Shown: positions 23,212 to 51,762 of the stretch, one piece after another | Layout: every line of letters begins with the position of its first letter | Position numbering within the stretch: position 1 is the stretch's first letter | From: a virus | Taxonomy: Duplodnaviria > Caudoviricetes | Reading direction: 5' to 3' (one strand) | Length of the DNA stretch: 58,218 bases | IMG/VR virus record: IMGVR_UViG_3300025138_000046 | Span: 1-58,218 of that record | Translations under genes and position numbers: made by a program | Notes under the pieces: model-generated | What the model was told of the DNA's origin: nothing | The model's input: only the letters and a program-made list of their open reading frames with translations | Database searches by the model: none

Positions 23212-23616
23212 TTACTTCTCACCTTTATCTTTTAATTTTGCTCTGTCTTTTTTCTTAATTCCTGGTAACATTTTCTTAGCGATTTTAGAAATCATTCCTT
23301 TCTTATTGGCTAACTTTTTTTCGATACCAGCACGTGCTGCAAAAGAAAGATCAGCTTTACTTTTGCCTTTTAACATTTTTTTGATTAGGAATTCCCTGGC
23401 TGCCTTATTGGCACGGGATTTAAGTTTTTCTGGGGAGGCAAGTTTTTTCGCAGCTTTCTTTTTACCAAGTGCGATCTTTGCTTTGTTCTTGCGAAATGAA
23501 GCTTTCATTTTCATTCTGTGTGCTAATGACATAGCCTCCGAAAAGTCTACGGTTTCATTAGTTAGATCTGCGTCGTGTTCTTTAAACGATTTCATTGTTA
23601 TCCTCGGTATCCCCAT
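23212..23616 (-). CDS. Lys-rich putative internal head protein
   Basis: MKSFKEH leader at the second Met; very basic body. Confidence 0.6.
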   Translation of the reverse strand: MGIPRITMKSFKEHDADLTNETVDFSEAMSLAHRMKMKASFRKNKAKIALGKKKAAKKLASPEKLKSRANKAAREFLIKKMLKGKSKADLSFAARAGIEKKLANKKGMISKIAKKMLPGIKKKDRAKLKDKGEK

Positions 23617-23617
23617 A

Positions 23618-24883
23618 TCAGTTAGGATTATCCCAACCTTTTATAATATCTTTGCTGAAGTTATTAGTAGAAAATTCTAATCTATCAACAAGCTTTACTG
23701 CTCCACCTTCCATACGATCTATAGCAACAAAACCCTCAGGGTTGGTCACTTTAAATCCGGACTTAGTCTTCACAAACGTACCAATTTTACTTAGTCTGTT
23801 TAGTTTATTTATAATAATTAATTTGCTATCCACAACTAAATTTTGTAAATCGAACACATTTTGTAAACTTTTTATGTTAGATTTGCTAAAAAATTGTAAT
23901 AATTGATCACGTTTTACTATTTGAATATCTTTACCTTTTTGACTGCTTCTCTTATCAATTTCTTTTTGGTATCTAGTATTTACCCACATTACTAATCCTG
24001 TTGCATGCTTCTTAGTATCGGTAATTCTCTGCCCTGATCTCACTTTAGTGTTATTATAAACGTTAATAAGTAAGTTTAATTCCCTGTTAGATTCTAATTC
24101 TTTCAGCGTAGAACCTGATATCTTTTTAAACATTTTACCAGCATCAGACAACTTTTTATTAAGCTCATCTGTTTCTTGTTTTGTTAATGTTGCTGTTCCG
24201 GAAAGATCATCTAGTGTTGCATCCTGCATCCAAACATCTTTCGACGGTTTAAGTTTAGTGACTATTGATCTGCCAAACTCAGCTCTCATTGTTTCAAATG
24301 TACCACCGTTATAAACCGTGTGCCATACGATACCGATCTTAGCTCTTGAAATTTCTTTTGCTAATGCAGTTGATGTTGGAACTGCATAAGCGATTGTATT
24401 AGGATGAAATACTATGTGCTTTACTCCACCAATATTTTCAGTTTTGAGGTCAGACTTATCAAACATGAAGTCACCTTGTATAACGCCTTTAATTCCTAAA
24501 GGCTGTAAATAATCAAAGGCCATTTTTAATTTTTTAGAAAGATCTCCAGAAGTATCAGCATCAATATCTGCATGAGATTTATATACCTTAGGATTAGAAT
24601 TAAAGATTCCTTTTTTAGCAACAAAGAATTGTCCATCTCTTGGATCTTCTCCAGCAAATACGGCGGGGGCACCGTCCCATTTTACGGTAACGTCTACTGC
24701 AGATTTTGCATTACCCGATAACATATCTCGCAACGACCTAAGCGCGAGGATAGCTTGGCGCGCCCCCTTAACTCCACCGTCAAGAATAAGATCCTCAATA
24801 TGAATCATATGAGTGTTCTTACCTGCGGCCTCCGATAATTGATTTTTAAATGATTTTATAACTTTCGTCAAATTTGATTTCAT
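23618..24883 (-). CDS. ATP-dependent ligase-like covalent nucleotidyltransferase
   Basis: TVKWDG (motif I KxDG), IQGDF (motif III-like), EGFV (motif IV) and VKLV (motif V); KSFKNQLSE leader. Confidence 0.6.
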   Translation of the reverse strand: MKSNLTKVIKSFKNQLSEAAGKNTHMIHIEDLILDGGVKGARQAILALRSLRDMLSGNAKSAVDVTVKWDGAPAVFAGEDPRDGQFFVAKKGIFNSNPKVYKSHADIDADTSGDLSKKLKMAFDYLQPLGIKGVIQGDFMFDKSDLKTENIGGVKHIVFHPNTIAYAVPTSTALAKEISRAKIGIVWHTVYNGGTFETMRAEFGRSIVTKLKPSKDVWMQDATLDDLSGTATLTKQETDELNKKLSDAGKMFKKISGSTLKELESNRELNLLINVYNNTKVRSGQRITDTKKHATGLVMWVNTRYQKEIDKRSSQKGKDIQIVKRDQLLQFFSKSNIKSLQNVFDLQNLVVDSKLIIINKLNRLSKIGTFVKTKSGFKVTNPEGFVAIDRMEGGAVKLVDRLEFSTNNFSKDIIKGWDNPN

Positions 24884-26256
24884 TATTGATATACCTTCAC
24901 GTACGCGCTAGAATCTTCTGATTTAGATCCCGCATAGTTTATAATTTTAGTTATCCAACGATTTGCTTTAGTGCCGCTGTTTTTATCAACGTAATATAAG
25001 ACATATAAACACGCTAGCTTTGAACCTATCCAATAAACGTCTTTTAATAACAATTCTTTTTCAAAGTTTTCATATGAATCATTTTTATAAAAATTGTTAT
25101 ACATTTCATAAAATATTTTAATAGATCTTTTATCTTTTTTAAGAATACTCTTAGCTATTTTATTAATGACTTTATTGTCGGGTATTTTCTTTCCAAAAAC
25201 CGACTTTATACCTTCTGCCATAATTCCGTATCCGGCACCGCCGCCTCTCGATGTTTTCATTCTGATTTCTGCTTTAATAGCTCCTCCAGCAGATCCAGCC
25301 CTTAGGTCAAGCTTACCAGCGTCAAATATAACAGTAGCACCTTTATTAGACCAAAAGGTTCCTCTAAGTTCTCCTTGGAACATTATAGTTTTTATCTTAT
25401 GGTCGTCAGTATCAGGCGGTAATTTAATATTGTACTCTTTAGCTTTAGCAGTTTTCTTAACAAGCTTTAATGATATTCCGACCAAGTCTCTATCAACAAA
25501 TGCTTGTAACAATGCTTTATTATAAGCTGCTATACTTTCGGTGCTAAGAGTTGACAATTTATAACTTTTATTAACGGCCCAGATATCTCCAGGGTTCCAC
25601 TTATCATCTTTAACAGGTTTTTGATCAGAATTTTTATATGCGACATTCTTCATTGCATATACTGTATTCATTAATTTACTTGCTCTATGAAATGTCTGCG
25701 ACTTATTTATGTAACCGTTTTTAATAAGAATTACTGCGGATTCATATGATGAATGGAACCATCCATCTTCGACTGATAATACTTCATCTAAAGTAGCATC
25801 GACATAAACTCTATTATATGCAGCTTTAAGAATATTGTGATTCATAAAGAATTCTTCGTCTTGCATTCCGTTGTCTAACATAGCTTGACACATAACACAT
25901 TGATGAGATTCTGTGATTTTAGTATTGAGAGTTCCGCCGCCAGCTCCACCTCCACCTCCAAATACTTTACTCTTTCCTAGATCGGAAGAGCTTATCATTT
26001 TATCGCCACCTATGAGAGTAAAGGGTTTTTTTAGTTTTTTGAATATTTCAATTGAAGTTATAGCATTTTCTATATCAGTTACTTTAAATACTCCGCCTTT
26101 AGCCAATTCAAGGGGCTTTCCGTCTTTTATAAGACGTGCTAAAATATCTATTCTGTCTATACCAGTATTAGCATTTGGTTTTAACAATTCGGATGGAGTT
26201 AGCTTTACGGCTTCTTGAAGTTCTTCGATTTGTTCGAAATATCTTAAGCTTTTCAT
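24883..26256 (-). CDS. Putative PD-(D/E)XK nuclease
   Basis: T.ITES, DKWNPGDIW and LVGISLK motifs; first gene of the cluster. Confidence 0.55.
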   Translation of the reverse strand: MKSLRYFEQIEELQEAVKLTPSELLKPNANTGIDRIDILARLIKDGKPLELAKGGVFKVTDIENAITSIEIFKKLKKPFTLIGGDKMISSSDLGKSKVFGGGGGAGGGTLNTKITESHQCVMCQAMLDNGMQDEEFFMNHNILKAAYNRVYVDATLDEVLSVEDGWFHSSYESAVILIKNGYINKSQTFHRASKLMNTVYAMKNVAYKNSDQKPVKDDKWNPGDIWAVNKSYKLSTLSTESIAAYNKALLQAFVDRDLVGISLKLVKKTAKAKEYNIKLPPDTDDHKIKTIMFQGELRGTFWSNKGATVIFDAGKLDLRAGSAGGAIKAEIRMKTSRGGGAGYGIMAEGIKSVFGKKIPDNKVINKIAKSILKKDKRSIKIFYEMYNNFYKNDSYENFEKELLLKDVYWIGSKLACLYVLYYVDKNSGTKANRWITKIINYAGSKSEDSSAYVKVYQ

Positions 26257-27895: not shown

Positions 27896-28000
27896 CCTTA
27901 TCTTTAATATGGTACCATTATACCACACTTATAAGGCTTTGTACACCTTTTTTTGAAAAAAAGTGTATATTTTTTATATCTATTTGTTATATGTAATTAT
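27896..28000. repeat. Promoter/leader cassette, copy 1 (imperfect ~105 bp repeat)
   Basis: CCTTATCTTTAATATGGTACCATTATACCAC...TGTACACCTTTTTTT...TTTTATATCTATTT is shared with 51763-51867. Confidence 0.85.
27917..27946 (-). promoter_or_regulatory. Early promoter
   Basis: GTGTACA-17-TATAAT. Confidence 0.8.
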
Positions 28001-28002
28001 GT

Positions 28003-28662
28003 TTATATAACGTCGTCAAGCGGGAATATTTGGTATATTGCCTCAGCACATGCCTTAGCTATCTCTTGATGTTCTTTCTGAGTACCATTAGCAGATCGTA
28101 ATTGTATATAATGAATCCAAGATCTTAGTGTTCCATTCACGTACATACGAGACATTGTCAAACCTTCAGGTAAAATTGCTCGTGCCTGTTCCTTTGCAAT
28201 ACCTGCGTTTATTGCCCAATCATATGCGTGTTTACAACGCTCAATAATGACTTCTTGATATGATTCCCATATATGATGTATAGAATCTTCCATAGGAATA
28301 TCAACGGAGTTTTGTCGATTTTTGTTATCTTGCATCCGAGCATCTCTCGTCACAAAGGTTAAATCTTTAGTAGGATCAGCATACCGCTGACTAAATTCCT
28401 GAAAAGAAAAAGATCGATGTCTAAGAATTTGTCTTGCGATATCCCGGGTTGTATCAATTTCCATACAGACACTGGCCATCTCAAGAGGTGACCAGTGCTG
28501 ATGTTTAATCAAATATTTAACTAATTTCTCTGCGGTTTCTTCATTATTTTGGTTACTAGGATTCGACACCCTAGCGCAATATGCTACCATTTGTAACAAA
28601 TCATCTTTCAAATCAACGCCAATTGCTGGCTTACTATACGAAACTACACGAACCTTAAACAT
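28003..28662 (-). CDS. thyX: Flavin-dependent thymidylate synthase
   Basis: HWSPLE, RHRSFSFQEFSQRY, EQAR..LP and TQ.EH motifs. Confidence 0.95.
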   Translation of the reverse strand: MFKVRVVSYSKPAIGVDLKDDLLQMVAYCARVSNPSNQNNEETAEKLVKYLIKHQHWSPLEMASVCMEIDTTRDIARQILRHRSFSFQEFSQRYADPTKDLTFVTRDARMQDNKNRQNSVDIPMEDSIHHIWESYQEVIIERCKHAYDWAINAGIAKEQARAILPEGLTMSRMYVNGTLRSWIHYIQLRSANGTQKEHQEIAKACAEAIYQIFPLDDVI

Positions 28663-28679: not shown

Positions 28680-29309
28680 TTAGAAATTAAGAGTTAAGTT
28701 TATTGCGGCTGAATCCATAAATGTGCCTGATCTTACTCCATCCATTACCATTAATCCAATCGTTAGATTTTCTGTTACGGGCTTTGCGATCATCAACATC
28801 ACATGAGACATTTCAGTTTCAGCAACTTTATGTTCAGCATATCCAATTGACACATTAGCTGCTTTAATAAATGGCAATGCTTGTGATACTTCTAAATAAC
28901 TTAGATGTGCATCAACAGTATTGCGGTAATATTTCATACTTGTGTTTTTCCAAGAAGCTCCAAAATAAACTTCTTCGAAAGGATCATAATCACTACCATC
29001 AAAGTTATATTGAATAACACCCAAGTCTACACTAATATCGTCAGTTAAATCCGTGCTGTAACCAGCATAAAAATCATATTCAACATTAGCCGTGTCGCCA
29101 TAATCTACTTCACTGGCCCATGCTCCAGCATAAAAACCTGATTCATGGTTATAATCTATACCTGCTTGTAAAGCAACATTTCCTGCATTTTGTGACATGC
29201 CTCTCCAAAAATAATCTGAAGTGACCGAAACATTATATGAAGTATCTGCTTGAGCGGTAAACGATGTTACCATTAAAAGAGAGCATAAGAATGTTTTTAA
29301 ACTATTCAC
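28680..29309 (-). CDS. TorF-family putative outer-membrane porin (TIGR02001-like)
   Basis: Signal peptide ending AQA, SDYFWRG.SQ...ALQAG.DY, GFYAGAW and a C-terminal Phe; GTG start with AGGAG RBS. Confidence 0.8.
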   Translation of the reverse strand: MNSLKTFLCSLLMVTSFTAQADTSYNVSVTSDYFWRGMSQNAGNVALQAGIDYNHESGFYAGAWASEVDYGDTANVEYDFYAGYSTDLTDDISVDLGVIQYNFDGSDYDPFEEVYFGASWKNTSMKYYRNTVDAHLSYLEVSQALPFIKAANVSIGYAEHKVAETEMSHVMLMIAKPVTENLTIGLMVMDGVRSGTFMDSAAINLTLNF

Positions 29310-29470
29310 TACGCTTCTCCTTTTACTAGAGTATATATACCCCACGCCAAACCTGCCCATGCTACTAGTTTAGCAATACCGCCAAACAACACGACTGAGC
29401 CGCATACCACGATGAGTGACACCCCATCCAAGGAAGTTCTTTCTTTGATTCTATCTTTTATCCAATTCAT
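29309..29470 (-). CDS. Small two-TM membrane protein (53 aa)
   Basis: Hand-translated MNWIKDRIKERTSLDGVSLIVVCG...; AGGAG RBS. Confidence 0.65.
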   Translation of the reverse strand: MNWIKDRIKERTSLDGVSLIVVCGSVVLFGGIAKLVAWAGLAWGIYTLVKGEA

Positions 29471-30868: not shown

Positions 30869-31151
30869 GTTTTGTTGTCCCTTCGTTAATAATATGTGTT
30901 AATAAATCGCCGAGATAATTATTAAATTTCTCGTCTTCTTTCAATGTGTCGTGGTCAAAATCACCTGGATCGTTAATGTTATAAGTAAATGACAAAGTTG
31001 CCATATCTAGCTCCGGAGATTCTTTAATAGAAACTGTTCCATAAATAAACCTTACTCCATCATAAGGAGAATTCTCATTTAAATGTATAGCATAAAAGTC
31101 CGATTCTGGGTGTTCTACAGTTATATAATGATTATCCATATTTTTTATCAT
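30822..31151 (-). CDS. Hypothetical protein in the gp40 position
   Basis: Synteny between uvsX and 41; YG.V and GD.L motifs. Confidence 0.6.
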   Translation of the reverse strand: MIKNMDNHYITVEHPESDFYAIHLNENSPYDGVRFIYGTVSIKESPELDMATLSFTYNINDPGDFDHDTLKEDEKFNNYLGDLLTHIINEGTTKLAERDTNTRTKSSTK

Positions 31152-32200
31152 TGTTCTTGCTCTATATCTAATTCTACGTCTAATAATGGTTTATGTCCTA
31201 TTTGGTAGTGGCCAATTAAGAACTCTTTAAAGTTGGTAGTTTCAAATATTGGTTTCCAGAAATCCTCGTTTAGCGTATCTTTCTCTCTTACCTTCGGCTG
31301 AACAAGTTCACCAGTTTCCATGTCTACTCTACAATACCAACCTACATTTGGTTTTTGAACATATCCACCAGCTAATGCTACATCTAGTAGTCCAGAGTAT
31401 GGCGCGATGCCTCCTTCCCATGTTACTGTAATTGGAATCTTAGATTTTTCTTTTACAAATCTAGACTTTTCTACATTGATTACAAAATTGTAACCTTTAA
31501 TTTCTGTACCAGTCTTTTGTTGCTGTCTTCCGATAATCCAAATGTTATCTGCTGAATAATAAATACCAGTACCACCTGAAACAATCGCTTTAGGAAATAA
31601 TCCGATTTCTTGATACGTATGATTAACAGCAAGCAAAGGAATATTCTTCATAGCCAGATAAGGAGTGACCATTCTGAATAGACCTTTAAGTGCTTTAGCT
31701 CTTGACATGTCAGCAACTGACTTTTCGTTCAGCGCATCTTCTAATTCTTTCTTAGAAGCTAAGTTACCAATAGAATCTATAACAACAATAACTTTGTCGT
31801 TACGATCTAAATTTTCTAATTGGCCAACAATATCAAATTTTAATTGTTCGACATCTGTTATTGGAGTGTGTAATACTCGTTGCGTATCTATACCAAAAGA
31901 TTCAAAGTATGATTGAGGTGAACCGAATTCAGAATCATAAAATAACAATACTGCATCGCTATGTTCTTTTAGATATGCACCTGCCATTAATAACGCAAAT
32001 GAAGTTTTAAAATGCTTCGATGGGCCTGCTAGTACAGTTAAACCTGGACTTAAGCCTCCATCGGGATCTCCAGATAACGCAACGTTTATCATTGGTACTT
32101 CTGTTGCAGTCATTTCTTTTTCGCTAAAGAACACTGAATCTGCTAATATGTCCGATGTTTTAATTTTCGAATTCTTTTTTAGTTTATCCATCACTGACAT
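31148..32200 (-). CDS. uvsX: RecA-like recombinase UvsX
   Basis: AGPSKHFKT, DSEFG, IDSIGN and KSRFVKE motifs. Confidence 0.95.
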   Translation of the reverse strand: MSVMDKLKKNSKIKTSDILADSVFFSEKEMTATEVPMINVALSGDPDGGLSPGLTVLAGPSKHFKTSFALLMAGAYLKEHSDAVLLFYDSEFGSPQSYFESFGIDTQRVLHTPITDVEQLKFDIVGQLENLDRNDKVIVVIDSIGNLASKKELEDALNEKSVADMSRAKALKGLFRMVTPYLAMKNIPLLAVNHTYQEIGLFPKAIVSGGTGIYYSADNIWIIGRQQQKTGTEIKGYNFVINVEKSRFVKEKSKIPITVTWEGGIAPYSGLLDVALAGGYVQKPNVGWYCRVDMETGELVQPKVREKDTLNEDFWKPIFETTNFKEFLIGHYQIGHKPLLDVELDIEQEQ

Positions 32201-32478
32201 TATCTTTTTCTCCTTCCGAATTGTGTTTGTTCCATAGACCTTAATTGTCTTTTATGGCGCGATATAGCTTCGGCTTTTTTACGCTTACGCTTTGCTGTTG
32301 GCTTTTCGTAGAATTCTTTTTTACGGACATCTTGTAAGATACCTGCAGCTTCTACAGCCTTTTTAAACTTTCGTAAAGCAACATCAAACGGCATATCTTG
32401 TGGCGGACGATCGTCACGTTTTCCTTTCCGATTTTTGTTAAACTTTCTTGGTTGTGCTTTTAAATTAATACTTGGCAT
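32200..32478 (-). CDS. rpsU: Ribosomal protein bS21
   Basis: [15 protein letters not shown]...[15 protein letters not shown]. Confidence 0.9.
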
Positions 32479-32509: not shown

Positions 32510-32539
32510 ATTATAACATGAAATCTGTCAATTGTACAC
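32510..32539 (-). promoter_or_regulatory. Early promoter (rpsU-uvsX-41)
   Basis: GTGTACA-17-TATAAT, embedded in the 3' end of the upstream ORF. Confidence 0.75.
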
Positions 32540-33464
32540 AGTTAATTGCCCAATTTTTTCTTCGATAACATTCTGGTGATAGATGCACCGAAGAGACACT
32601 TTCCATTTTGTCTTTGGCGTATTGCTCACTATTCATAGTAAGCCATTCTTCAGGGTATTTGACTCGCGTCATACCCAGTTCATCCATGCAAGATATCCAT
32701 TCAGATAAGGCTTGCATTCTTTCTTCTCGGGATCCCCAAAAAGGCTGGCCTTTATAATAGCCAGTTTTTGGCAATTTACGCTCTTCAAACTCAATGGGCC
32801 ATGGAGTAGAATACTCTACCTTTATACCCTTTTGCTCTAGTTCATCACCAAATTTTTTCCATGATTGTAACATAGGCTTTATATCAGCCTTTAGTCTGCA
32901 AACATGATGTCTAATATCTATATTTCCGAATGACATAGTAATACCCCTTGGAAAACATTCTTCTATATGCTGTATAACATATTCAAAATCTGTTTTTATT
33001 TGACCATTAAGAGTTAAGCCATCCGTTTTAATTACAAGTGAATTTTCTTTTGCGTATGCTGCAGTATGTGAGTCGCCTATTGTTAACCATTTGATATCTA
33101 CAATATCTGTAGATTTTAATCTTTTTGCAGTTTTACATTTCTCAGTTACTTTATCGCACCAATCTTTATCGGTAACATCTTTACGTTTCTTTAGCATTTC
33201 GCCATAGTCAGGCATATCGATGTCTAATGAATATATTACTTTAGCTTCTAAAAAGTTATTTATTCTATCTTTTAATTCATCATTGAATCCTGAAAATAAA
33301 TTTAGAGATCCACCGAAGTTTACTCCATGATCTAAATATAATACTTCGACATAATCTCCGTTATGATTAATGTCAACTCCAAGGTTTTCTGACCAGGTTC
33401 TAGCCCACCCAAAACCGTGGCTATTTTTTTTCTTTGGTATTTTATTAAATGTTCCTGTTATCAT
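32511..33464 (-). CDS. Protein with SGNH-hydrolase-like C-terminal domain
   Basis: IGDSH (block I), FGNIDIR (block III) and SVHLSP (block V-like). Confidence 0.55.
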
Positions 33465-34336
33465 AAATTTTTATCCCAGTCTCTATAACTATCAATTGTT
33501 TCATATATCATTTCATTATCTAATGTAGGCTCTGGCCCAACATTCCAAAATAAAATATCTCTTCCTGTATTTTTTGGTATGTACTTCCACACCTTTCCGT
33601 CATATGTGTCGATACACGGGAATGGTGGAAGGTTCTCTGTTTTTTCTGAAGCCATGAATTGTTTAGGTTCACTTATAACAGCAGCCCTTCCTAATTCTCC
33701 AGCTTTCATGTTTCTAGACACTGCAACAGATGTAAATTTTGCATTTGGCCATGCAATCTGAAGCGCTCTGGTTAGCACACCTGTAGAAGTGGCTACATAA
33801 ACTTCGTTTGGTGCGCGTAGGGCACTCGCAACCTTCACCATTCCAGCAGTAACCATCTCATGTTTTAAACCTAATGGTACGAAATAATATCCGTTTTTTC
33901 TTGCATCTTCTAAGGCTATTTTGTTTAAATTTGGCATTGCTGCTATTCTATGGAAACTAACATCGGCTCCTTGCTCAATACAACAAGCTTGATGATGAGA
34001 TATTCTCTTGCTAGATGGCATGTATAGCCTTACTTTTTTGTTATGTCTTTTAGCGGCATCTAATATACTCACACCAGCTAAACCGGTTCGTGGTTGAACA
34101 TATGCGATTGTTTCTTCCTTAATAGTACTTATTAAACAATCTCCACCTCTAGTTTTAGACCCTACAATTAAGTCATCTCTAATAACTCTAATACCGTCAT
34201 GTATAACCTCGACTGGAGCTGGATTTGGATCTTCCCAATTCTTGGCTAATTCTAAATAATATTCCTTAGCTTCCTCCGGTTGCATTAGTCCGATGTCTTT
34301 ATTGAATCCGTCTTCTACGTGATTATTATGAGGCAT
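33461..34336 (-). CDS. PLP-dependent enzyme (fold type II)
   Basis: IRDDL..GSKTRG with the Schiff-base Lys, ATSTG phosphate loop, YDGK.W and LFWNVG. Confidence 0.75.
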   Translation of the reverse strand: MPHNNHVEDGFNKDIGLMQPEEAKEYYLELAKNWEDPNPAPVEVIHDGIRVIRDDLIVGSKTRGGDCLISTIKEETIAYVQPRTGLAGVSILDAAKRHNKKVRLYMPSSKRISHHQACCIEQGADVSFHRIAAMPNLNKIALEDARKNGYYFVPLGLKHEMVTAGMVKVASALRAPNEVYVATSTGVLTRALQIAWPNAKFTSVAVSRNMKAGELGRAAVISEPKQFMASEKTENLPPFPCIDTYDGKVWKYIPKNTGRDILFWNVGPEPTLDNEMIYETIDSYRDWDKNL

Positions 34337-35501
34337 TGCGTATATCCTTATCCATCATCAAATGTTGTACCATAGCCTTATAATCATTTGCTGTTAAATT
34401 ATTATCGTCTAACACTTTTAAATCTGAAGGATGTGATTTCATTCCATTGAACGTTTCTATTAAACCAAGTTCTAACATTGGTTTTTGTCTACCTCTCGGG
34501 TGATCTTTAATGTCGCTACTAGACCATAGGTTATCATAATCAAGATGAGCATAATCATTACCAGGTCTGACATAATTTTCTACCCATCTAATGTAGTCAC
34601 AACAAACATCTTCTGCATTATAAGGAACACTTCCAGTGTCACTATAAATTTGCATCATAACTTCATCTAAAAAATCTTCTTTCTTTAATTTATTATTGTT
34701 GATTCCTAAATATGAGATGCATTCAACCGCATTAGTTCCGTAATAAAACATACTCTCAGTATTAACCAAATGTGGAAACCAATCTGCTATATCAGCTACG
34801 ACTGCAGCATATTGAAATGCGTATCGTCTTAAACCGTTTTCAACATTCCATTTTAACATGAATTCACCAACTTCTCTAAGATCTTTTTTGCCTGGAATAG
34901 CCAAGAAGTGAGATAATTTTTTTGCCAGTATCGGAGCATATTCACATAAGAAATAGTCTCCGCCCTTTTTATAATCAGATGTTGGTTTTGGAAATGCTGG
35001 GAATTGATATCCAATTGAAGTATAAAATGGCTTTCCTAATTTACCTTCAGCTTTAATAATCTTTTTCATATCGTTAATGTCTTCAGCTAGGTGTAGCTTA
35101 AACAATAGCGTATTGTGATATCCAGAAGGCTTGGTTCCGTAATTAATCGCAGAGCCCGTAACTCTATGTAGAATAAACAAATATAACCAAGTTTCTAATG
35201 AATGTGTTTTTCCAGTCCAGTTTTTTGCAACAAGCTCTCTTTGTGCTGTTGCCTGGCCAGCTTGCATTCTGTCCCAATACGGATGTTTATCAGTCCAACC
35301 ATAAAATATATCGTTAATAATCTGAGAAAATCCGGCATATTTACGCTCGACTACATCATATAGCTCAACGTTTTCCATTAGATCATCATTCATACAGCTT
35401 TCCATATGAGGCATGAAATTAGGAACATTACACTTTATCTGTTGATCTTTAGCCAACTCAAAGTACTTTAAAAAATCGTAATAGTATTCAGTTTTTTTCA
35501 T
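34326..35501 (-). CDS. Putative amino acid:DNA transferase (aGPT-pyrophosphorylase-like)
   Basis: N-terminal YDVVER, mid ADI....P and C-terminal AEDVCCDYIRW resembling the ExxxC(D/E) motif; context next to a PLP enzyme and a hydroxymethylase. Confidence 0.5.
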   Translation of the reverse strand: MKKTEYYYDFLKYFELAKDQQIKCNVPNFMPHMESCMNDDLMENVELYDVVERKYAGFSQIINDIFYGWTDKHPYWDRMQAGQATAQRELVAKNWTGKTHSLETWLYLFILHRVTGSAINYGTKPSGYHNTLLFKLHLAEDINDMKKIIKAEGKLGKPFYTSIGYQFPAFPKPTSDYKKGGDYFLCEYAPILAKKLSHFLAIPGKKDLREVGEFMLKWNVENGLRRYAFQYAAVVADIADWFPHLVNTESMFYYGTNAVECISYLGINNNKLKKEDFLDEVMMQIYSDTGSVPYNAEDVCCDYIRWVENYVRPGNDYAHLDYDNLWSSSDIKDHPRGRQKPMLELGLIETFNGMKSHPSDLKVLDDNNLTANDYKAMVQHLMMDKDIRNAS

Positions 35502-35785
35502 AATATAGTAAACAGATTCCTTAGCAAAAATAATAAACCTACGCCATTAAGTAAAATAAGCGCGCGATCTTGCCAGATAATAGATACCCACAGCCAAAGG
35601 GAAATACCTGTAGCCGATAATACAACATCGTAATATTGATATCCGTCAATGCCTCTAATTGACATTGCACTTAATACAAAAACCGATGCGATCCATTTAA
35701 TGTACCAATCTAATGTATATTTCGGTGTAGCACTTTTAAATATTCGCTTACTGTTTTTGATTTCGTTCGGATCAAAATCTGCCAT
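35498..35785 (-). CDS. Small multi-TM membrane protein
   Basis: DWYIKW.AS...W.DRALI.LN hydrophobic pattern; start refined. Confidence 0.65.
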   Translation of the reverse strand: MADFDPNEIKNSKRIFKSATPKYTLDWYIKWIASVFVLSAMSIRGIDGYQYYDVVLSATGISLWLWVSIIWQDRALILLNGVGLLFLLRNLFTIL

Positions 35786-35786
35786 A

Positions 35787-35987
35787 CTATTCATCGCTAT
35801 GTAATGTTTTATGTTTTTCGTTACGTTCATATTTGCTTTTGTCTTTGTGAACTTTAGTAGAACCGTGATCTGGTGTAGTCTTTCTCACTTTAGGTTTACC
35901 AAATATAGCATCCCAATTATCTCTACCTTGCTTAGATAGGGATTTTGATCGTATACTATCTCCAGTTATATCGTTTTTAGTTACCAT
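35787..35987 (-). CDS. Hypothetical protein
   Basis: KNDITGD.I.SK and NWD.IF motifs. Confidence 0.65.
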   Translation of the reverse strand: MVTKNDITGDSIRSKSLSKQGRDNWDAIFGKPKVRKTTPDHGSTKVHKDKSKYERNEKHKTLHSDE

Positions 35988-35999
35988 AATATTACTTAA

Positions 36000-36278
36000 T
36001 TAAATTCCAACTTGATACATTGGTAGGTCAATTGGTAATTCTAGTTGCAATTCCTTTTCAGCACAACTAGAACATTTAACTTCAGCTCCGTCAATAAGAA
36101 TATCAACCTTTTTAAAAAATAGACATCCTTCTGAATTGGTTGTTAACAAAAATGTATCACCAATATTAAATGGAGTTTGGTTGATTTTTAATAGACAGTT
36201 TGGTTCTAGTTTACTGTCTACATCTGTAAAAGTTAATCCTGCTTGGTTCATTTCAAATTTGTAATCTACATATAACAT
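36000..36278 (-). CDS. Hypothetical protein
   Basis: GAGGA RBS just after the tRNA. Confidence 0.6.
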   Translation of the reverse strand: MLYVDYKFEMNQAGLTFTDVDSKLEPNCLLKINQTPFNIGDTFLLTTNSEGCLFFKKVDILIDGAEVKCSSCAEKELQLELPIDLPMYQVGI

Positions 36279-36296
36279 TTTTCTTTCCTCTTTTTT

Positions 36297-36373
36297 TGGC
36301 GCGTCCTGGAGGATTCGAACCTCCGACCTACGGCTTAGAAGGCCGTTGCTCTATCCAGCTGAGCTAAGAACGC
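36297..36373 (-). tRNA. tRNA-Arg (anticodon TCT)
   Basis: GCGTTCTTAGCTCAGCTGGATAGAGCAACGGCCTTCTAAGCCGTAGGTCGGAGGTTCGAATCCTCCAGGACGCGCCA: full cloverleaf with encoded CCA. Confidence 0.95.
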
Positions 36374-36380
36374 TTCATTC

Positions 36381-36842
36381 TTAGTCTATGAAGTCATAAG
36401 TTATACCGGCTTCGGTAAACAGCTTTTTAGTTAACTCTGTTGATTCAACCCACCTTTCTGGCATTGAATCGTCAATTTCTTTTGTTACTACTCTGGTTAC
36501 TCCAACTTGTATAATGCCTTTAGCGCATTCTGAACAAACCGGTAATCCGTGTATATACAATGTTGCACCGTCTAGTGATGTTCCATTATATGTCGCATTG
36601 TAAATACAATTCATTTCCGCATGTACTACATGTTGATATTTAGTAACTTTATTTTGATACATAGTATCGCTATCAGATATTCCACGTGGAAATCCATTGT
36701 AACCCTGGGCTAAAACTTGCCCCTTAGATCCTACTGCAATTGCTCCTACTTTTCTTGATGGGTCTTTTGACCACAACGCAATGTGTTGGGCCAAAGCTAT
36801 ATATCTTTTATCCCATTTGTAAATTTTAGTTGATTCCCACAT
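36381..36842 (-). CDS. cd: dCMP deaminase
   Basis: SKDP, GYNG, HAEMN and C..C motifs. Confidence 0.92.
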   Translation of the reverse strand: MWESTKIYKWDKRYIALAQHIALWSKDPSRKVGAIAVGSKGQVLAQGYNGFPRGISDSDTMYQNKVTKYQHVVHAEMNCIYNATYNGTSLDGATLYIHGLPVCSECAKGIIQVGVTRVVTKEIDDSMPERWVESTELTKKLFTEAGITYDFID

Positions 36843-36843
36843 A

Positions 36844-37500
36844 TTATACTACTAAATCAAAATGACGTTCGTAAACGTGTAGGTTTTGTACTTGCCAATG
36901 GATTTGACCAACGTCAACTCCGAGCTCATCGGCTAATTCCCCAAGAACATATTCTTGCCAAGCATAATCATTGCGGTAACCAAATATTACATCATTAGAT
37001 CTCATTTGAACTACACATTCTAATACATCGTCTCGTATATAATACGTAACTGCATTAGTGCATATAAAATCGTTCTTTTCATTTTCATACCACTCGTGCC
37101 AAATAGAAGGTCTTTGATATACCATACTAGCTCTACGCGAATCTCTATTTCTAGTAAGTTCTAGTACAACTTGTTCAAATTGATTATGATACTTTTCACT
37201 GAAAATTAAGTGTCCGTAATTTGAATTAATTTCGCCATGATCATTAGCAGTCATTTTCCATGCTTCCGGTGGTTCACGCTCACCACGATAAATATCGTTA
37301 ATATTTGTAGATTGATGTATATACCAATCTATTTCAGCGTCGATGTAATGTTTGTTGGGTTTGCCAAAAATAGCAGGTTCGTCAGCAACAAAGGATGCAC
37401 CGATTAACTCAATAGTTTTACCGCCATTTCTGTCTTCGGTAAACATTTTGTTTAAAAGTCTGGCTTTAAATAAACCTCGAATTTCGCTTATACTATTCAT
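36844..37500 (-). CDS. 42: dCMP hydroxymethylase-like thymidylate-synthase-family protein (gp42)
   Basis: TIELIGASFVADEP, EINSNYG, DSRR, DFICTN, MRSNDVIFGYRNDYAWQ and LHVY match recalled T4 gp42 motifs, including the dCMP-specifying Asp. Confidence 0.85.
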   Translation of the reverse strand: MNSISEIRGLFKARLLNKMFTEDRNGGKTIELIGASFVADEPAIFGKPNKHYIDAEIDWYIHQSTNINDIYRGEREPPEAWKMTANDHGEINSNYGHLIFSEKYHNQFEQVVLELTRNRDSRRASMVYQRPSIWHEWYENEKNDFICTNAVTYYIRDDVLECVVQMRSNDVIFGYRNDYAWQEYVLGELADELGVDVGQIHWQVQNLHVYERHFDLVV

Positions 37501-37802
37501 TTTTTATACCTATCGTCGAGTTCTGGATGTTCTGCGCAATGCATCATTAAGATCATTAATTGAGTTGCGGCATGAGATAAATGTGTTTTACCAGATTCTG
37601 GATCTAGGTCTTCACCTGCATGCCAAGCGTTAAGATGTCGTTGGATTGAAGAATAAGTTCGCAACTTGCTCGTTGAATCGCCGTCATCACGCCAGTTGTT
37701 TACACCATACTTTTCGGCGCCGAAGCCAAAGACTTCTGCGATTTCTAATAATGCTTCTGGTGGTATTAAAGCTAATGGAGCTTTGCCTTCATCGAATTTC
37801 AT
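37497..37802 (-). CDS. dATP/dGTP diphosphohydrolase-domain protein (DUF5664-like)
   Basis: KFD.GK, GA.KY...NW, RHL, D.ESG..HL.HA and DDR motifs. Confidence 0.8.
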   Translation of the reverse strand: MKFDEGKAPLALIPPEALLEIAEVFGFGAEKYGVNNWRDDGDSTSKLRTYSSIQRHLNAWHAGEDLDPESGKTHLSHAATQLMILMMHCAEHPELDDRYKK

Positions 37803-37831
37803 AATAATGCCTTTTTGATTTTGATATGGTT

Positions 37832-37861
37832 ATTATAACACAAGTAACTTAGAATGTACAC
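37832..37861 (-). promoter_or_regulatory. Early promoter (modification operon)
   Basis: GTGTACA-17-TATAAT. Confidence 0.8.
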
Positions 37862-37872: not shown

Positions 37873-38337
37873 TTATTTTAATGGAAATTTAAACCTTTGT
37901 TTACCATCTACATATTCTAGATTGTCTACAGCTTCTTTCGCGTCGACAACCCCTAAAATTTCGTATGATACTGGTGTATTTTCATTTAAATCTGGAGCAA
38001 AATTATTAGGCCACCATTTCCAGATGACTAGTTTTTGTGTGTGGCCTGACAAAATTGATCTTTTTATAAATGGAGAAATATGTACACCAGACTTAGCATA
38101 TTGTTTATAATCTAAAGTAACATTATCAACAAGATGCATTGTGTCATACCGCATCTCTCCGTCCTTAGATAAAACTTGGTTTGGATCCATACTAGCCTGA
38201 TCATGTTCAGGAAATTCACAGTTTGCTCCACGAATTCCTGCATCTAAGTGTTCTACCATTTTATCCCTACGAGCTATAAACTCCGGAGTAACTATAGCGC
38301 TATAACATCCTTTGAGATCTTCAAGCTTCATATACAA
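37873..38337 (-). CDS. Hypothetical protein, possible restriction-fold nuclease
   Basis: E...YD-x9-DYK pattern; weak. Confidence 0.5.
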   Translation of the reverse strand: MYMKLEDLKGCYSAIVTPEFIARRDKMVEHLDAGIRGANCEFPEHDQASMDPNQVLSKDGEMRYDTMHLVDNVTLDYKQYAKSGVHISPFIKRSILSGHTQKLVIWKWWPNNFAPDLNENTPVSYEILGVVDAKEAVDNLEYVDGKQRFKFPLK

Positions 38338-38740
38338 TACCTTGCTCGTTCAATGCTTTTCTATTAGCCATGTGATGTTCTTCAGTCAATTCTTTAGAAT
38401 CTCCATAGTATGGAACTGCATGGAAATTATTAATCATAATTTGATTTACCGAAGTATTAAAATCTCCGTCAATAAATAATTCACCGAGAATTCTACCAAA
38501 CTTGCCTTTATCATGTGATATCAATGAGACATTTTGACCATCTAATAAATCTTCTAAGTAATACTTGCTTTGCTTACCATAGAATTTTTCTTCTAGATCT
38601 CGAGTTCGTGACTCAGGAGTATCAATGCCCATCATTCTAACTCTTTGCTTTTTGTAAACCATTCCAAAGCCTAAATCGACATTAACATCGATCGTGTCTC
38701 CGTCAACTACTCTTGTCACTTCTACATTATACGTATACAT
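38321..38740 (-). CDS. Thermonuclease (SNase-like)
   Basis: VVDGDTID, GIDTPE and GKFGRILG motifs. Confidence 0.88.
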   Translation of the reverse strand: MYTYNVEVTRVVDGDTIDVNVDLGFGMVYKKQRVRMMGIDTPESRTRDLEEKFYGKQSKYYLEDLLDGQNVSLISHDKGKFGRILGELFIDGDFNTSVNQIMINNFHAVPYYGDSKELTEEHHMANRKALNEQGIVYEA

Positions 38741-41124: not shown

Positions 41125-41154
41125 ATTATAACACACTTTGCATATAATGTACAC
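41125..41154 (-). promoter_or_regulatory. Early promoter
   Basis: GTGTACA-17-TATAAT. Confidence 0.8.
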
Positions 41155-41161: not shown

Positions 41162-43678
41162 TTAAAAGAATTCTTCGAGTGTCGCAATCTCTTTCGAGTT
41201 CCAGCCTACGGCTGATAGAATCGGATCGATAACATCTAAGAAGGTTTTGTTGAATTGTTTATCAAAATCAATATAGCGATGTAAACCAAACTCTTCAGGA
41301 AGATAATCAAGGAACGATATTACATTTTCCTTGATGTGATTTGGTGTACGCAAATAGATAAACTTGATCTTTTCGCCATTTTGAATTTTGTTGTATTGCT
41401 GTCCTAAAGACATATCCTTTAAAAGCTTATTGTATAGAATTCCACCGCGTGCATGAATCGGCGTACCTTTTCGATATATCGTTTGTTTATCTTGAAACTG
41501 AGTCAAGTTAGTAATTCCTCGAGGGAATGCGATTTCGTTTGGTGGTAGAGTTTTAAAATGTGTTCTAAAGATTTCTATGTTACTTTGAACTTCTTTCTCA
41601 GAACCGGCTATTATAGTCTTGAAGATCTGCTTTAGTGCTTCACGGCACGGTGCTGGTGTTGATGATTTAATAGCCTCAATCCCCATGATTTTAAGTTTAG
41701 GCTCCGCGTATCGTACACCTTCGTTATCAAGTACATTTAAGATGTAACGCTTTTTTGCTGTCCAGATGCCACGATCAGCAATTGCTTCTCGTTTCATTAC
41801 CATTCGGTTTTCAATACCACCCATAATATTAAACAGTGTTCCATAACTTTCTTCTAATACAGCTTCTAGTTTTTCTTTACAAACAGTATCTACGAATTCT
41901 AATGGATTTTTAGGCTTAACTGCAGATACAAGATCGTCAAGGACTACATAGACAGAATCTGTATCGATTGCTAATACATAATCTTTTTTAGTTTTAAGAA
42001 CTGATTGCAGGTATTTATTAATTGCTTCTTCAGCCCAACGAATAGTCAACTGACCCGATAAAGTAATTCCTTCTGCAATACGCTGATCAAAGAATCTAAA
42101 ATACTTATTGCCTAAAGCACCATAAAGTGAGTTAAGTAGAATCTTAATAGACATCTGCTGATTTTCTGCAATTGCAATATCGCGTTGAACTCTGTATAAT
42201 TCTTGCTTGTCATTCTTATCGACTCTTTCTAATTCTTTTTGAGATGTAATCATTTGTCTTTTAATGACAACACGTTCACTATACATTTCATTAATTATTT
42301 TAGGTAAAATGCCAAGTTCATCGGTTTTAAAGTATTGGCCAGAAGCTGAACAACATTCGCCGTCTTCTATTTTAGGTTTTAGTTGTCCTGTAAGTAAATT
42401 GTCAACATTCACATTTGCAACTTTGCCACTAATAATAGTTTCTGGAGACATATTGTATTGCATAATAAGCGATGGATATAGTGAGTTTAAATCAAATGAA
42501 ACTACCCATTCATGCATACCAACTTGAGGATCTTTTACATAACCACCAGGATATGGTGATTTAAACTTTTCCTCAGCAAAAGGAATAATTACATTATTTG
42601 CATAAAGATTTCTAAAGATGATAGCATCCCATATCGCAGTAGTTCCCATAACATCGCTGTAATTTACTCCGCCGCGATAAGCCATAGTTAATGCTAAAGT
42701 AATAAGTCCCATCTTATCTTCAAAGCGATCTACTAAATCTACGTCTTTAATATTATAGTCAATAAACTTTTGATGATCATATTTGTAAAGAGTGTGTAAG
42801 TTGCCATGCTCTTCGTACGAAAGCTTACGTTCATCAAGAACAACATTTGCAATGTGATCTAGCTTGTATGATTCCTGAGGACCATATGAATATCCAAATT
42901 TGCGAAACAAATCAAGGTAATCCATTTGAGCAATACCTTGAATATCGTATGCCATTTGTTTACGTTGCATTGTATTAACATCGCGACGGTCTATTAATCC
43001 CCAAGGCGATAATCTACGAACAAACTCTTCACCATGTATCTTAATGATTCTGTTTATTAAGTATGGCATATCAAAAAACCTTGAATTCCAACCGGTAATA
43101 ACATCTGGACATTGCGAAGGTAAAGCCCAATGCGCAATATACTCGAGTAGTAGTTGAGATTCTGATGCGCATTGTTTGTAGACAACACGGTTTTCTTGCA
43201 TTAAGCTATTTTCTACATCATAAGGTTTTAGACCCCAGACATAGAATGTATTATCAATATTATTTTTCATACAGATTGCCGTTACTTCATGCGCTGCATG
43301 TTCAGGATCCGGAAATCCAGCGTCAGATTGTACTTCAATATCAATTGTTGTTACGTTAATTAAGTTACGATCAAACTTAATTTCTCCAGGGAATTCGTCA
43401 TTAATAAATGCTGGGATATGTTTATTGTTCCCAAAGATATGCCTTCCAGCGGTTTGTTGATTTGTTTGTAACCAATCCTTAGCATCGCGCATAGAATCAA
43501 ATTGTATTGGTGATACTTTCGTGCCGTCAAGTGCCTTAAAGGGAGTTGGTTTAGGAGTGTTAACAAAATACGTAGGTTGATATTTTATTTTAGTTTGAAT
43601 TTTTTTGCCGTTTTTGTACCCACGATATAGGAGTGAGTTCCCGTAACGAGAAACGTTCGTGTAGAATTTCATGTTCAT
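41162..43678 (-). CDS. 43: DNA polymerase family B gp43
   Basis: DIEV exonuclease motif, DLNSLYP, KILLNSLYG, DTDS and KKRY. Confidence 0.97.
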   Translation of the reverse strand: MNMKFYTNVSRYGNSLLYRGYKNGKKIQTKIKYQPTYFVNTPKPTPFKALDGTKVSPIQFDSMRDAKDWLQTNQQTAGRHIFGNNKHIPAFINDEFPGEIKFDRNLINVTTIDIEVQSDAGFPDPEHAAHEVTAICMKNNIDNTFYVWGLKPYDVENSLMQENRVVYKQCASESQLLLEYIAHWALPSQCPDVITGWNSRFFDMPYLINRIIKIHGEEFVRRLSPWGLIDRRDVNTMQRKQMAYDIQGIAQMDYLDLFRKFGYSYGPQESYKLDHIANVVLDERKLSYEEHGNLHTLYKYDHQKFIDYNIKDVDLVDRFEDKMGLITLALTMAYRGGVNYSDVMGTTAIWDAIIFRNLYANNVIIPFAEEKFKSPYPGGYVKDPQVGMHEWVVSFDLNSLYPSLIMQYNMSPETIISGKVANVNVDNLLTGQLKPKIEDGECCSASGQYFKTDELGILPKIINEMYSERVVIKRQMITSQKELERVDKNDKQELYRVQRDIAIAENQQMSIKILLNSLYGALGNKYFRFFDQRIAEGITLSGQLTIRWAEEAINKYLQSVLKTKKDYVLAIDTDSVYVVLDDLVSAVKPKNPLEFVDTVCKEKLEAVLEESYGTLFNIMGGIENRMVMKREAIADRGIWTAKKRYILNVLDNEGVRYAEPKLKIMGIEAIKSSTPAPCREALKQIFKTIIAGSEKEVQSNIEIFRTHFKTLPPNEIAFPRGITNLTQFQDKQTIYRKGTPIHARGGILYNKLLKDMSLGQQYNKIQNGEKIKFIYLRTPNHIKENVISFLDYLPEEFGLHRYIDFDKQFNKTFLDVIDPILSAVGWNSKEIATLEEFF

Positions 43679-48118: not shown

Positions 48119-48403
48119 TTATTTTGAATTTGATCGATCGTGCTCGTATAGCGCAAGCAATCCATAATGTAAGACTTTCATAAGATCTTTTCTATGATCA
48201 TCTGAACTTCCTTTCTTACCATACCTAGCATTGTACTTGTCAACATTACCTAGGAAAAATCCTAGGCCATGTCCACGATCAATAATAACTTCAGAAGATT
48301 GCAATCCTCCTTGGCCATAATGCTGATTATATGTAGAATCAATATACGTTTGGAACTCTTTAATAAGAGCTCCTTCGTTAAATTTATAATTAGGCTGTTT
48401 CAT
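48119..48403 (-). CDS. DUF3310-like protein
   Basis: TY.QHY, GF..GN..KY..RYGKK and DL.K..HY motifs; start refined. Confidence 0.7.
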   Translation of the reverse strand: MKQPNYKFNEGALIKEFQTYIDSTYNQHYGQGGLQSSEVIIDRGHGLGFFLGNVDKYNARYGKKGSSDDHRKDLMKVLHYGLLALYEHDRSNSK

Positions 48404-49529: not shown

Positions 49530-49563
49530 AATATAATTTTCCTTATCAATTGTTTATGTGTAT

Positions 49564-49593
49564 ATTATACCACAGTTGAGGGTGTTTGTACAC
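49564..49593 (-). promoter_or_regulatory. Early promoter
   Basis: GTGTACA-17-TATAAT. Confidence 0.8.
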
Positions 49594-49649
49594 AGTTTTT
49601 TTCATTTATTTTCACTTTTTTTGACCATGTCTTTAAATACGGTCATATC

Positions 49650-51755: not shown

Positions 51756-51762
51756 ATTAACT

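Follow-up and report, generated by a model that had tools for sequence, protein, structure and literature searches.

Organization of the Operon

The DNA analyzed here is the 58,218-nucleotide (nt) virus record IMGVR_UViG_3300025138_000046 of IMG/VR, referred to below in its full length as the window. This 58 kb viral contig represents ~32% of a phage genome according to CheckV, and nearly all of its transcription is found on the minus strand. The subject of this work is an operon of that strand, extending from position 37802 to 32511, in which ten genes and one tRNA follow each other without gaps (Table 1). Genes coding for a MazG-like pyrophosphatase, a thymidylate synthase (TS) homologue and a dCMP deaminase occupy its 5′ part, while its 3′ part codes for a 391-amino acid (aa) helical protein, a pyridoxal phosphate (PLP) enzyme and a protein with an SGNH fold. 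It appears reasonably probable that this operon serves a marine T4-like (pelagimyophage-like) phage as a cassette for modifying cytosine in two stages, of which the first provides 5-hydroxymethylcytosine (5hmC) in DNA and the second turns it into an amine-bearing base. Thus, the source phage probably produces a previously undescribed DNA base. This reading is assembled from gene order, protein families and folds, diagnostic residues, a gene fusion and synteny; from these sequence-level data we infer the chemistry and even the target base.

Adjoining genes of the operon overlap by 4–11 nt or are spaced by at most ~22 nt, and the overlap between the small open reading frames (ORFs) at 35787–35987 and 35498–35830 reaches 44 nt. 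The operon is bounded by two copies of a promoter-like motif, TGTACA-N17-TATAAT with an extended −10 (TG), which are the top two sites of the segment 31000–39200. The positions of the ORFs and of these two sites agree with the run of genes between two promoters that was reported in a preliminary description of the sequence. The motif is found 16 times in the window, as compared to 0.92 occurrences expected from shuffled sequences. Thirteen copies are exact, 14 lie on the minus (coding) strand and none of the 16 falls within the operon. It is probably the early or middle promoter consensus of the source phage. Its other sites include 3619–3647, 7930–7958, 27917–27945, 41125–41153 and 51784–51812, and the −10 sequence is usually preceded by GTGTG or GTATG.

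Table 1. Features of the operon and its bounding promoter-like sites (window positions; E, expectation value; AF2, AlphaFold2).
Feature	Position	Strand	Supporting data
Promoter-like site at the operon head	37832..37860	−	One of 13 exact motif copies
MazG-like NTP pyrophosphatase domain protein, 101 aa	37497..37802	−	PF18909 E 1.7e-30; phrog_801 E 1e-37
T4 gp42-type dCMP hydroxymethylase (predicted), 218 aa	36844..37500	−	PF00303 E 5.7e-18; PDB 1b49 E 1.7e-60
dCMP deaminase, 153 aa	36381..36842	−	PF00383 E 1.9e-19; phrog_174 E 2.3e-43
tRNA-Arg, anticodon TCT	36297..36373	−	ARAGORN
Small ORF, 92 aa	36000..36278	−	Kept in closest relatives L004–L013 (tblastn); no Pfam, PHROG or NCBIfam match
Small basic ORF, 66 aa	35787..35987	−	Weak DUF7230 match, E 8.5e-5, below cut-off; kept in close relatives
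DUF6552 protein, 110 aa, hydrophobic by eye	35498..35830	−	PF20189 E 1.2e-15
391-aa helical protein	34326..35501	−	AF2, Foldseek, ESM Atlas; invariant Glu297-x3-Cys301
PLP enzyme, probably fold-type II, 291 aa	33461..34336	−	M6 gp52 homologue; predicted Schiff-base Lys61
SGNH/GDSL-fold protein, 317 aa	32511..33464	−	AF2/Foldseek; phrog_13881 E 1e-55
Next promoter-like site, heading the S21 and uvsX genes	32510..32538	−	Overlaps the 3′ end of the SGNH gene

Predicted Hydroxymethylase and Nucleotide Supply

The TS homologue, which contains the peptide RSNDVIFGYRNDYAWQ, aligns with T4 dCMP hydroxymethylase across residues 4–217 and has the catalytic Cys (equivalent of T4 C148). The reaction of enzymes of this type can be read at the positions equivalent to L143, C146, D169 and N177 of ThyA. 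An acidic residue at the L143 equivalent admits water, so that a hydroxymethyl and not a methyl group is produced. Asp at the N177 equivalent selects dCMP over dUMP, and Asn at the D169 equivalent is the marker of those gp42-like enzymes, such as RB69 gp48 and DLP3 gp80, that make 5-hydroxy-dCMP (PMC13326640). The four positions were scored by alignment in the window protein, T4 gp42, RB69 gp48 and 47 homologues encoded next to the cassette in related contigs. Asp/Cys/Asp/Asp (DCDD) is found in the window enzyme, in T4 gp42 and in 47/47 of the homologues, whereas the RB69 gp48 control reads Glu/Cys/Asn/Asp (ECND). Because its signature matches T4 and not RB69 gp48, the window enzyme is assigned to the 5-hydroxymethyl-dCMP (hm-dCMP) type, which is its predicted product by all published sequence criteria. 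The preliminary description had called it gp42-type; the call now includes a residue that excludes 5-hydroxycytosine (5hoC) synthases.

The window also encodes, as noted before, a ThyX protein (28003–28662; PF02511, E 3.5e-44) that can provide dTMP. A candidate role of the MazG-like pyrophosphatase is to lower dCTP or to supply dCMP.

The PLP Enzyme

The PLP enzyme recognized in the preliminary description proved to be a homologue of gp52 of phage M6 itself: BLASTP aligned the two proteins end-to-end with 24% identity over 274 columns (E 6e-8). It also matches positions 7–279 of the 279 positions of the phrog_7093 profile (E 5e-37). Its score against the Pfam PALP family (PF00291) is 23.7 bits for a cut-off of 35, M6 gp52 itself reaching 39.5 bits, and many close homologues of the window protein carry PF00291. 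The matches of its profile in the PDB are cysteine synthases (E 0.005). Lys61 aligns with Lys36 of M6 gp52, the predicted internal-aldimine lysine (PMC8989533), and is invariant in 15/15 sequences, among them domains of Erythrobacter phage R6L and Microcystis phage Mae-JY30. M6 gp52 and ViI gp226 were purified, contain PLP and decarboxylate amino acids that are attached to thymine in DNA, gp52 being inactive until the free α-amine is exposed (PMC8989533). By alignment, the window protein is a homologue of this decarboxylase of thymidine hypermodification and Lys61 its predicted Schiff-base lysine.

In R6L gp1 (L002, vB_EliS_R6L) the related PLP domain and an N6/N4 DNA-methylase domain form a single fused protein, and in Mae-JY30 (L003:5111–6702) the two adjoin each other, an association that points to a further link of this PLP clade to DNA. 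These two arrangements may correspond to a separate, undescribed PLP-dependent DNA modification.

The 391-aa Helical Protein

The 391-aa protein has 946 homologues in a metagenomic set of 5.8 billion proteins, and 146 representative clusters were obtained. Searches of the PDB with the protein (phmmer) or with profiles of its family gave only chance-level matches. The AF2 model obtained from a 56-sequence alignment is all-helical (predicted local distance difference test, pLDDT, 96.1). Its top three Foldseek matches in BFVD are members of its own family, and the best of them (60% identical) is named “Amino acid:DNA transferase domain-containing” in UniProt. Further BFVD matches are ADDT-domain proteins (E 1.4e-4 and 0.18; template modeling (TM) score 0.33–0.49), the HMUDK_hel protein of PhiW-14 (E 0.034) and the 5-hydroxymethyldeoxyuridine (5-hmdU) DNA kinase of SP10 (E 0.037), the latter two with probability 0.99–1.0. 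Taken together, the HMUDK_hel proteins of PhiW-14, SP10, Nodularia and phiRSL1 were matched with probability 0.87–1.0 and a TM-score of ~0.4; endonuclease III and Pplase1 proteins were matched as well. The best Foldseek match in the PDB is a helix-hairpin-helix (HhH) 8-oxoG glycosylase. In the ESM Atlas, 25 of the 30 named matches are clusters in which PF18723 (HMUDK_hel) is carried by a minority of members (11–36%; score 0.97). The protein looks at least as near to the helical domain of 5-hmdU kinases as to ADDT. The preliminary description had likened it to amino acid:DNA transferases (AADT). What stands of this is a place in the neighborhood of the aGPT-Pplase, HMUDK_hel and HhH-glycosylase folds; membership in Pfam ADDT does not.

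Glu297 and Cys301 form a Glu-x3-Cys motif that is invariant in 56/56 family sequences and accounts for two of only nine invariant columns. A conserved Cys and a neighboring Glu are essential in M6 gp51 and ViI gp247 (PMC8989533), and their spacing in gp51, read from the translation, is the same as in E297-x3-C301. The Glu and Cys of PaMx11 gp46 that were probed by mutation (PMC11472151) are E243/C247, numbers that apply to gp51 too, and also have this spacing, although alignments give no significant support for their positional equivalence to E297/C301. The invariance of the motif suggests that it serves catalysis and not binding alone.

The SGNH-Fold Protein and Its Fusions

The third protein starts with an extra domain of unknown kind (~115 aa) that is followed by an SGNH/GDSL-fold domain in the AF2 model (pLDDT 87.7). 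The best Foldseek match in the PDB is 3mil (E 1.1e-4), and SGNH proteins make up most of the matches listed and all of the best twelve. These are esterases, thioesterases or scaffolds built on them (probability 0.97–1.0; target TM-score 0.45–0.61; ~200 columns). Conserved blocks assigned by eye from the alignment comprise GDSH (130–133), G149, GNID (180–183) and H294, all invariant in 24/24 sequences. The nearest named cluster in the ESM Atlas is Lipase_GDSL (score 0.91); the protein's own cluster has 1311 members, and the family neighborhood is viral for all 30 matches. Judging from the model, the 317-aa protein has an SGNH fold, in line with its earlier designation as SGNH-like.

Eight longer homologues of the 391-aa protein were fetched, and in seven (639–790 aa) the whole SGNH-like protein forms the N-terminal half. 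This layout mirrors, by analogy, the kinase-plus-helical-domain organization of 5-hmdU DNA kinases: gp186 of SP10 combines a P-loop kinase and HMUDK_hel in one chain, and its M6 equivalents are split between the neighboring genes gp54 (PF18748) and gp55 (PF18723). Because it is fused to a 391-type domain in other phages, the SGNH protein is read here as an activating partner. The fusions suggest that it is the missing one and not a late tailoring enzyme, which amends the preliminary description. The acylation or deacylation chemistry assigned to it there is kept in conditional form: the SGNH domain would do on the hydroxymethyl group, by acyl transfer, what a kinase does elsewhere.

Among cultured phages the SGNH-like domain was found in 43 records, 38 of Aeromonas, 3 of Tenacibaculum and 2 of Stenotrophomonas phages. 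In Aeromonas phage 44RR2.8t it is the N-terminal part of a 795-aa protein whose C-terminal part has a match to PF18723 below the cut-off (E 0.0036). Neither hhalign nor BLASTP matched the 391-aa family to this fusion protein, and the only ties of its C-terminal half are the sub-threshold HMUDK_hel match and a Glu-x-x-Cys-Cys motif recognized by eye. Aeromonas phages 44RR2.8t, 31, 25 and phiAS4 possess the fusion protein and lack a PLP homologue. The gp42 proteins of Aeromonas phages avDM2 and phiAS4 carry the T4 signature (2/2 checked), and for phages 44RR, 31 and 25 the presence of genes 42 and 56 and the absence of a glucosyltransferase were noted in 2010 (PMC2993671). A sodium:solute symporter gene precedes the fusion gene in 44RR2.8t (L001:4399–5922), and in the window the 391-aa gene is preceded by the DUF6552 gene, whose product has a faint match to SemiSWEET_2 (NF037968, E 0.0022), far below the cut-off. 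These transporter-like neighbors might import the group that is appended.

Related Loci and Missing Partner Enzymes

At least 587 IMG/VR stretches encode relatives of the 391-aa protein. The best 80, in which this protein is 61–93% identical to the one of the window, were compared, their neighboring genes being called by tblastn. Downstream sequence of at least 4.5 kb is available for 53 loci; of these, the PLP gene is present in 48, the SGNH gene in 50 and both in 47. With at least 3 kb upstream (46 loci), a gp42-type gene was found in 38, the dCMP deaminase in 30 and the pyrophosphatase in 10. The preliminary description had raised the question of whether the trio of downstream genes goes with gp42-type or with dUMP-type enzymes; these counts, together with the uniform DCDD signature of the adjacent TS homologues, favor the former. 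The records with fused SGNH-391-type proteins also have TS homologues with Asp at both the N177 and D169 equivalents in three out of four cases, including a complete genome of 225 kb. A search for related loci with the fused protein P0192 found none.

In 54/80 loci the 391-aa gene is immediately followed by an additional gene of ~330 aa, named X (e.g., L016:1533–2525, L070:11125–12129, L080:11218–12270). Its product, which has no Pfam match, is related to the 391-aa family as a distant paralogue (E 2.5e-6, probability 88.7% with hhalign), the alignment covering a Glu-Asp-x-x-Cys stretch. It could be the true transferase of a fuller pathway. In L080 the cassette is followed by genes for a GT2 glycosyltransferase and a UDP-galactopyranose mutase (13137–15417) and in L026 by a C5-cytosine DNA methylase gene (14354–15562), which suggests further tailoring or alternative marks.

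The enzymes that accompany hypermodification in other phages were searched for in the window and in its relatives. The 5-hmdU DNA kinase profile PF18748, which recovered both controls (M6 and PaMx11), matched neither the window nor any of five relatives that are 63–91% complete, and BLAST with M6 gp54 gave no match in the window or the 80 loci. The preliminary description had likewise seen no 5-hydroxymethyl-DNA kinase in the operon. A radical S-adenosylmethionine (radical-SAM) gene like that of M6 gp53 was found neither in the window nor in the 80 loci. No GT1, GT2 or T4 β-glucosyltransferase (β-gt) homologue was detected in the window, in agreement with the preliminary description; for glycosyltransferase and kinase alike, this holds for ~32% of the genome and for family scans that left aside the ORFs at 48390–57732 and most small ORFs. 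A P-loop kinase encoded at 20135–20809 (AAA_33/Zeta_toxin) was considered for the role of the missing DNA kinase and rejected, having no similarity to M6 gp54 and no PF18748 match; it could be a dNMP or polynucleotide kinase.

Proposed Pathway

The first stage, deduced from homology, would take place on nucleotides before replication. The MazG-like pyrophosphatase and the dCMP deaminase would shape the nucleotide pools, the gp42-type enzyme would make hm-dCMP that leads to 5hmC in DNA, and ThyX would supply ordinary dTMP. The second stage, for which folds, motifs, fusions and synteny provide the basis, would act on DNA after replication, with the SGNH and 391-aa proteins working as one unit. 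The 391-aa protein, as kin of the base-flipping aGPT-Pplase and HMUDK_hel domains, would present the 5-CH2OH group of 5hmC, and the SGNH domain would derivatize this hydroxymethyl by acyl transfer in place of a P-loop kinase. An amino acid could then be attached in one of two ways: by substitution at the activated methylene through the Glu-x3-Cys chemistry of the 391-aa protein (or of X in relatives), or directly as a side-chain ester. The PLP enzyme would finally decarboxylate the tethered amino acid as M6 gp52 does, leaving a primary amine on the base.

Because the radical-SAM isomerase gene is absent, the attached amino acid would have to retain its free α-amine and a route like that of the O-linked serine in phage ViI is favored. 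As the most economical product we predict 5-(2-aminoethoxy)methylcytosine. The second choice would be an aminoacyl-type ester of 5hmC; a side-chain ester of Asp or Glu that is decarboxylated after attachment would fit SGNH chemistry too.

A broader proposal is put forward more tentatively, as possible but not the expected outcome. An SGNH-fold enzyme would have replaced the P-loop kinase beside an HMUDK_hel/AADT-like base-flipping domain, so that 5hmC is activated or esterified by acyl transfer and, with the PLP enzyme, becomes a cationic amine-bearing cytosine. This would apply to abundant marine myophages and to the cultured T4-like phages of Aeromonas that have gene 42 and no glucosyltransferase.

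Alternative Readings

The cassette could end at a simpler mark. The SGNH and helical proteins would make or remove a plain O-acyl-5hmC, and the PLP enzyme would handle a small-molecule donor instead of DNA. Such a minimal module is what three IMG/VR loci without the PLP and X genes and the Aeromonas fusion phages without a PLP homologue display, and acetyl or acyl esters are the typical substrates of SGNH enzymes like those matched by Foldseek. However, a PLP gene accompanies the module in 48/53 loci, relatives of its domain are fused or adjacent to N6/N4 DNA-methylase domains, which argues for DNA as the substrate, and the characterized homologue M6 gp52 uses amino acids tethered to DNA (PMC8989533). 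The invariant Glu-x3-Cys also suggests catalysis beyond binding, and we consider the simple acyl mark unlikely. A change of target base, to 5-hydroxymethyluracil (5hmU), is more unlikely still. It would require hm-dUMP arising by deamination of hm-dCMP, for which a deaminase gene adjoins the hydroxymethylase gene, or a module blind to the base; the characterized relatives (AADT, HMUDK, M6 gp52) indeed all act on 5hmU derivatives (PMC8989533). Against it stand the dCMP-specifying Asp at the N177 equivalent in 47/47 neighbors, in 3/3 TS genes of records with the fused form and in 2/2 Aeromonas phages, the provision of normal dTMP by ThyX and the lack of a deaminase near the cassette in 16/46 loci. 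T4 also has a dCMP deaminase.

The order of events could also be different, with the modification completed on free nucleotides before replication. The early-type operon shared with nucleotide-pool enzymes is compatible with this, as is the use of hm-dCTP by the 5hmC carbamoyltransferase (PMC8670742), which may be a case of such an order. The recognizable relatives of the 391-aa fold (HhH glycosylases, AADT, HMUDK_hel) act on DNA, as does M6 gp52 (PMC8989533), which makes a nucleotide-level route highly improbable in our estimation. We give the least credit to the view that the three downstream genes have nothing to do with DNA and are auxiliary metabolic genes, such as those of an esterase/lipase and of a PLP enzyme of amino acid metabolism, which would be co-transcribed with nucleotide genes by chance of position in a hypervariable region. 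Pelagimyophage genomes do carry many host-like metabolic genes (PMC7029224), and the PLP enzyme has cysteine synthases as its best PDB relatives and “threonine dehydratase” as its PHROGs family name. Yet it is homologous to M6 gp52, all 30 Atlas matches of the SGNH protein lie in a viral neighborhood, and the SGNH domain is fused to a helical domain of the DNA-base-modification type. Moreover, synteny with gp42 is tight across loci whose 391-aa proteins share only 61–93% identity with that of the window, and the position of the cassette is that of T4 β-gt.

Several observations weigh against the two-stage amine pathway itself. The 391-aa protein has no match in Pfam (E ≤ 0.1), PHROG or NCBIfam, and the TM-scores of its model to members of the superfamily are only 0.3–0.5. 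PF18724 (ADDT), which finds the M6 gp51 control at E 1.4e-46, does not match it at E ≤ 0.1 and matches 1/56 family members (E 0.00099); PF18723 does not match it either (M6 gp55 control, E 8e-56). With hhalign, comparison of the family to a two-sequence profile of M6 gp51 and PaMx11 gp46 was insignificant (probability 0.6%), as was that to the HMUDK_hel profile of M6 gp55 and PaMx11 gp50. The structure of PaMx11 gp46 is not among the PDB Foldseek matches listed for the model (ranks up to 50) and was not recovered by the PDB profile search with the family. Because the PF18724, hhalign and PDB-profile tests fail, the protein is filed as a remote member of the aGPT-Pplase/amino acid:DNA transferase/HMUDK_hel superfamily that belongs to neither Pfam family. 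The SGNH domain lacks the block-V Asp, position 291 being variable, and is not matched by Pfam GDSL profiles at E ≤ 0.1. At the level of the loci, gp42 is absent within reach in 8/46. Five contigs without gp42, which are 8–46% complete, have no TS, Tet_JBP or C5-methylase gene, the Tet_JBP search lacking a positive control. The same three loci mentioned above contain the 391-aa and SGNH genes only, and gene X is missing from the window and its closest relatives; because of this variable presence of the PLP gene and of X, the pathway appears to differ between lineages. Finally, none of the window's proteins was identified as a dNMP kinase that could process hm-dCMP.

Source Phage and Neighboring Genes

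The window encodes a T4-like replication set composed of DNA polymerase (41162–43678), clamp, clamp loader, primase-helicase, UvsX (31148–32200) and class I ribonucleotide reductase. The cassette is located between the polymerase gene and uvsX, a slot that holds gene 42 and β-gt in T4 and the arabinosylation genes in RB69. It is directly followed by a gene for ribosomal protein S21 (32200–32478). Genes for a Gcw_chp-family protein (28680–29360), a class-3 lipase (13394–14200) and a staphylococcal-nuclease homologue (38321–38740) are found elsewhere in the window; together with S21 they look like the auxiliary genes typical of pelagimyophage-like phages. Three large genes at 22024–26256 code for a cytidylyltransferase-like protein with DUF5824, a DUF6267 protein (E 1e-102) and a 457-aa protein of phrog_1462.

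The closest cultured-phage homologues of the P-loop kinase at 20135–20809 belong to Melnitz-3 (Methylophilales) and Pelagibacter phage HTVC008M, which hints at a kinship of the source phage with these two. No match to the 391-aa protein was obtained by tblastn in 50,697 phage records at E ≤ 1e-5, and within this collection the PLP and SGNH proteins had no match in phages of Pelagibacter or Methylophilales.

Relation to Known Systems and Significance

To our knowledge, amino-acid-derived hypermodifications are known for thymidine only, and the known cytosine derivatives are methyl, hydroxymethyl, glycosyl, carbamoyl and 5-hydroxy/arabinosyl forms. The thymidine pathways of M6, ViI, PaMx11, SP10 and PhiW-14 combine 5-HMUDK, aGPT-Pplase2/AADT and a PLP decarboxylase (Lee et al. 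2018, 2021). Their starting point is a hydroxymethyl-pyrimidine made by a TS homologue, as predicted for the window. Shared as well are a helical Glu-x3-Cys protein, in the window filed as a remote member of the aGPT-Pplase superfamily, a homologous PLP enzyme, probably of fold-type II, and a pair of catalytic and helical domains, which some phages encode as one fused protein and others as two. The window differs from them by a hydroxymethylase that is dCMP-specific by sequence, by an SGNH domain in the place of the kinase, with no P-loop 5-hmdU DNA kinase, by a helical protein below the Pfam ADDT and HMUDK_hel thresholds and by the lack of radical-SAM, flavin or GNAT partners.

The gp42/β-glucosyltransferase system of T4 has the same type of hydroxymethylase (48–51% identity of the window enzyme to cultured-phage homologues), a dCMP deaminase and the polymerase–uvsX slot, whereas the window has no glycosyltransferase and its tailoring genes are of another kind. 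The 5hmC carbamoyltransferase clusters found by MetaGPA (Yang et al. 2021; PMC8670742) include a TS homologue, a MazG-type pyrophosphohydrolase, a dCMP deaminase and an enzyme that tailors the hydroxymethyl hydroxyl. Their product is 5-carbamoyloxymethylcytosine, made by a TobZ-like carbamoyltransferase, and they have no AADT-like, PLP or SGNH genes. In the arabinosylation of 5hoC by RB69 and DLP3 (Lee et al. 2026), the TS homologue also has Asp at the N177 equivalent and the genomic slot is the same; in those synthases, which make 5hoC, the D169 equivalent is Asn, while the window enzyme has Asp there and no sugar-nucleotide genes accompany it.

The idea, already formulated in the preliminary description, that amino-acid or amine chemistry is applied to 5hmC is supported in silico. 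In full-text searches of the literature outside subscription journals and supplements, no paper was found that joins aGPT-Pplase/HMUDK, SGNH or PLP enzymes with a dCMP hydroxymethylase or 5hmC. The queries of the metavirome survey of thymidine hypermodification were 5-HMUDK proteins (PMC8989533), and clusters lacking the kinase, like the present one, would for this reason escape it. If the broader proposal above is correct, cytosine would for the first time be known to carry a hypermodification derived from an amino acid, and acyl-based chemistry would be new to DNA bases. The cassette also offers new DNA-modifying enzymes for biotechnology. Because of its wide occurrence, with 946 homologues of the 391-aa protein, no fewer than 587 IMG/VR stretches and an SGNH cluster of 1311 members, the module could bias the way in which marine viromes are sequenced, digested with restriction enzymes and amplified. 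The pathway might also give a name to the modification of Aeromonas phages 44RR, 31 and 25, a question open since 2010 (PMC2993671). A cytosine version of hypermodification with another activating enzyme would widen natural DNA chemistry.

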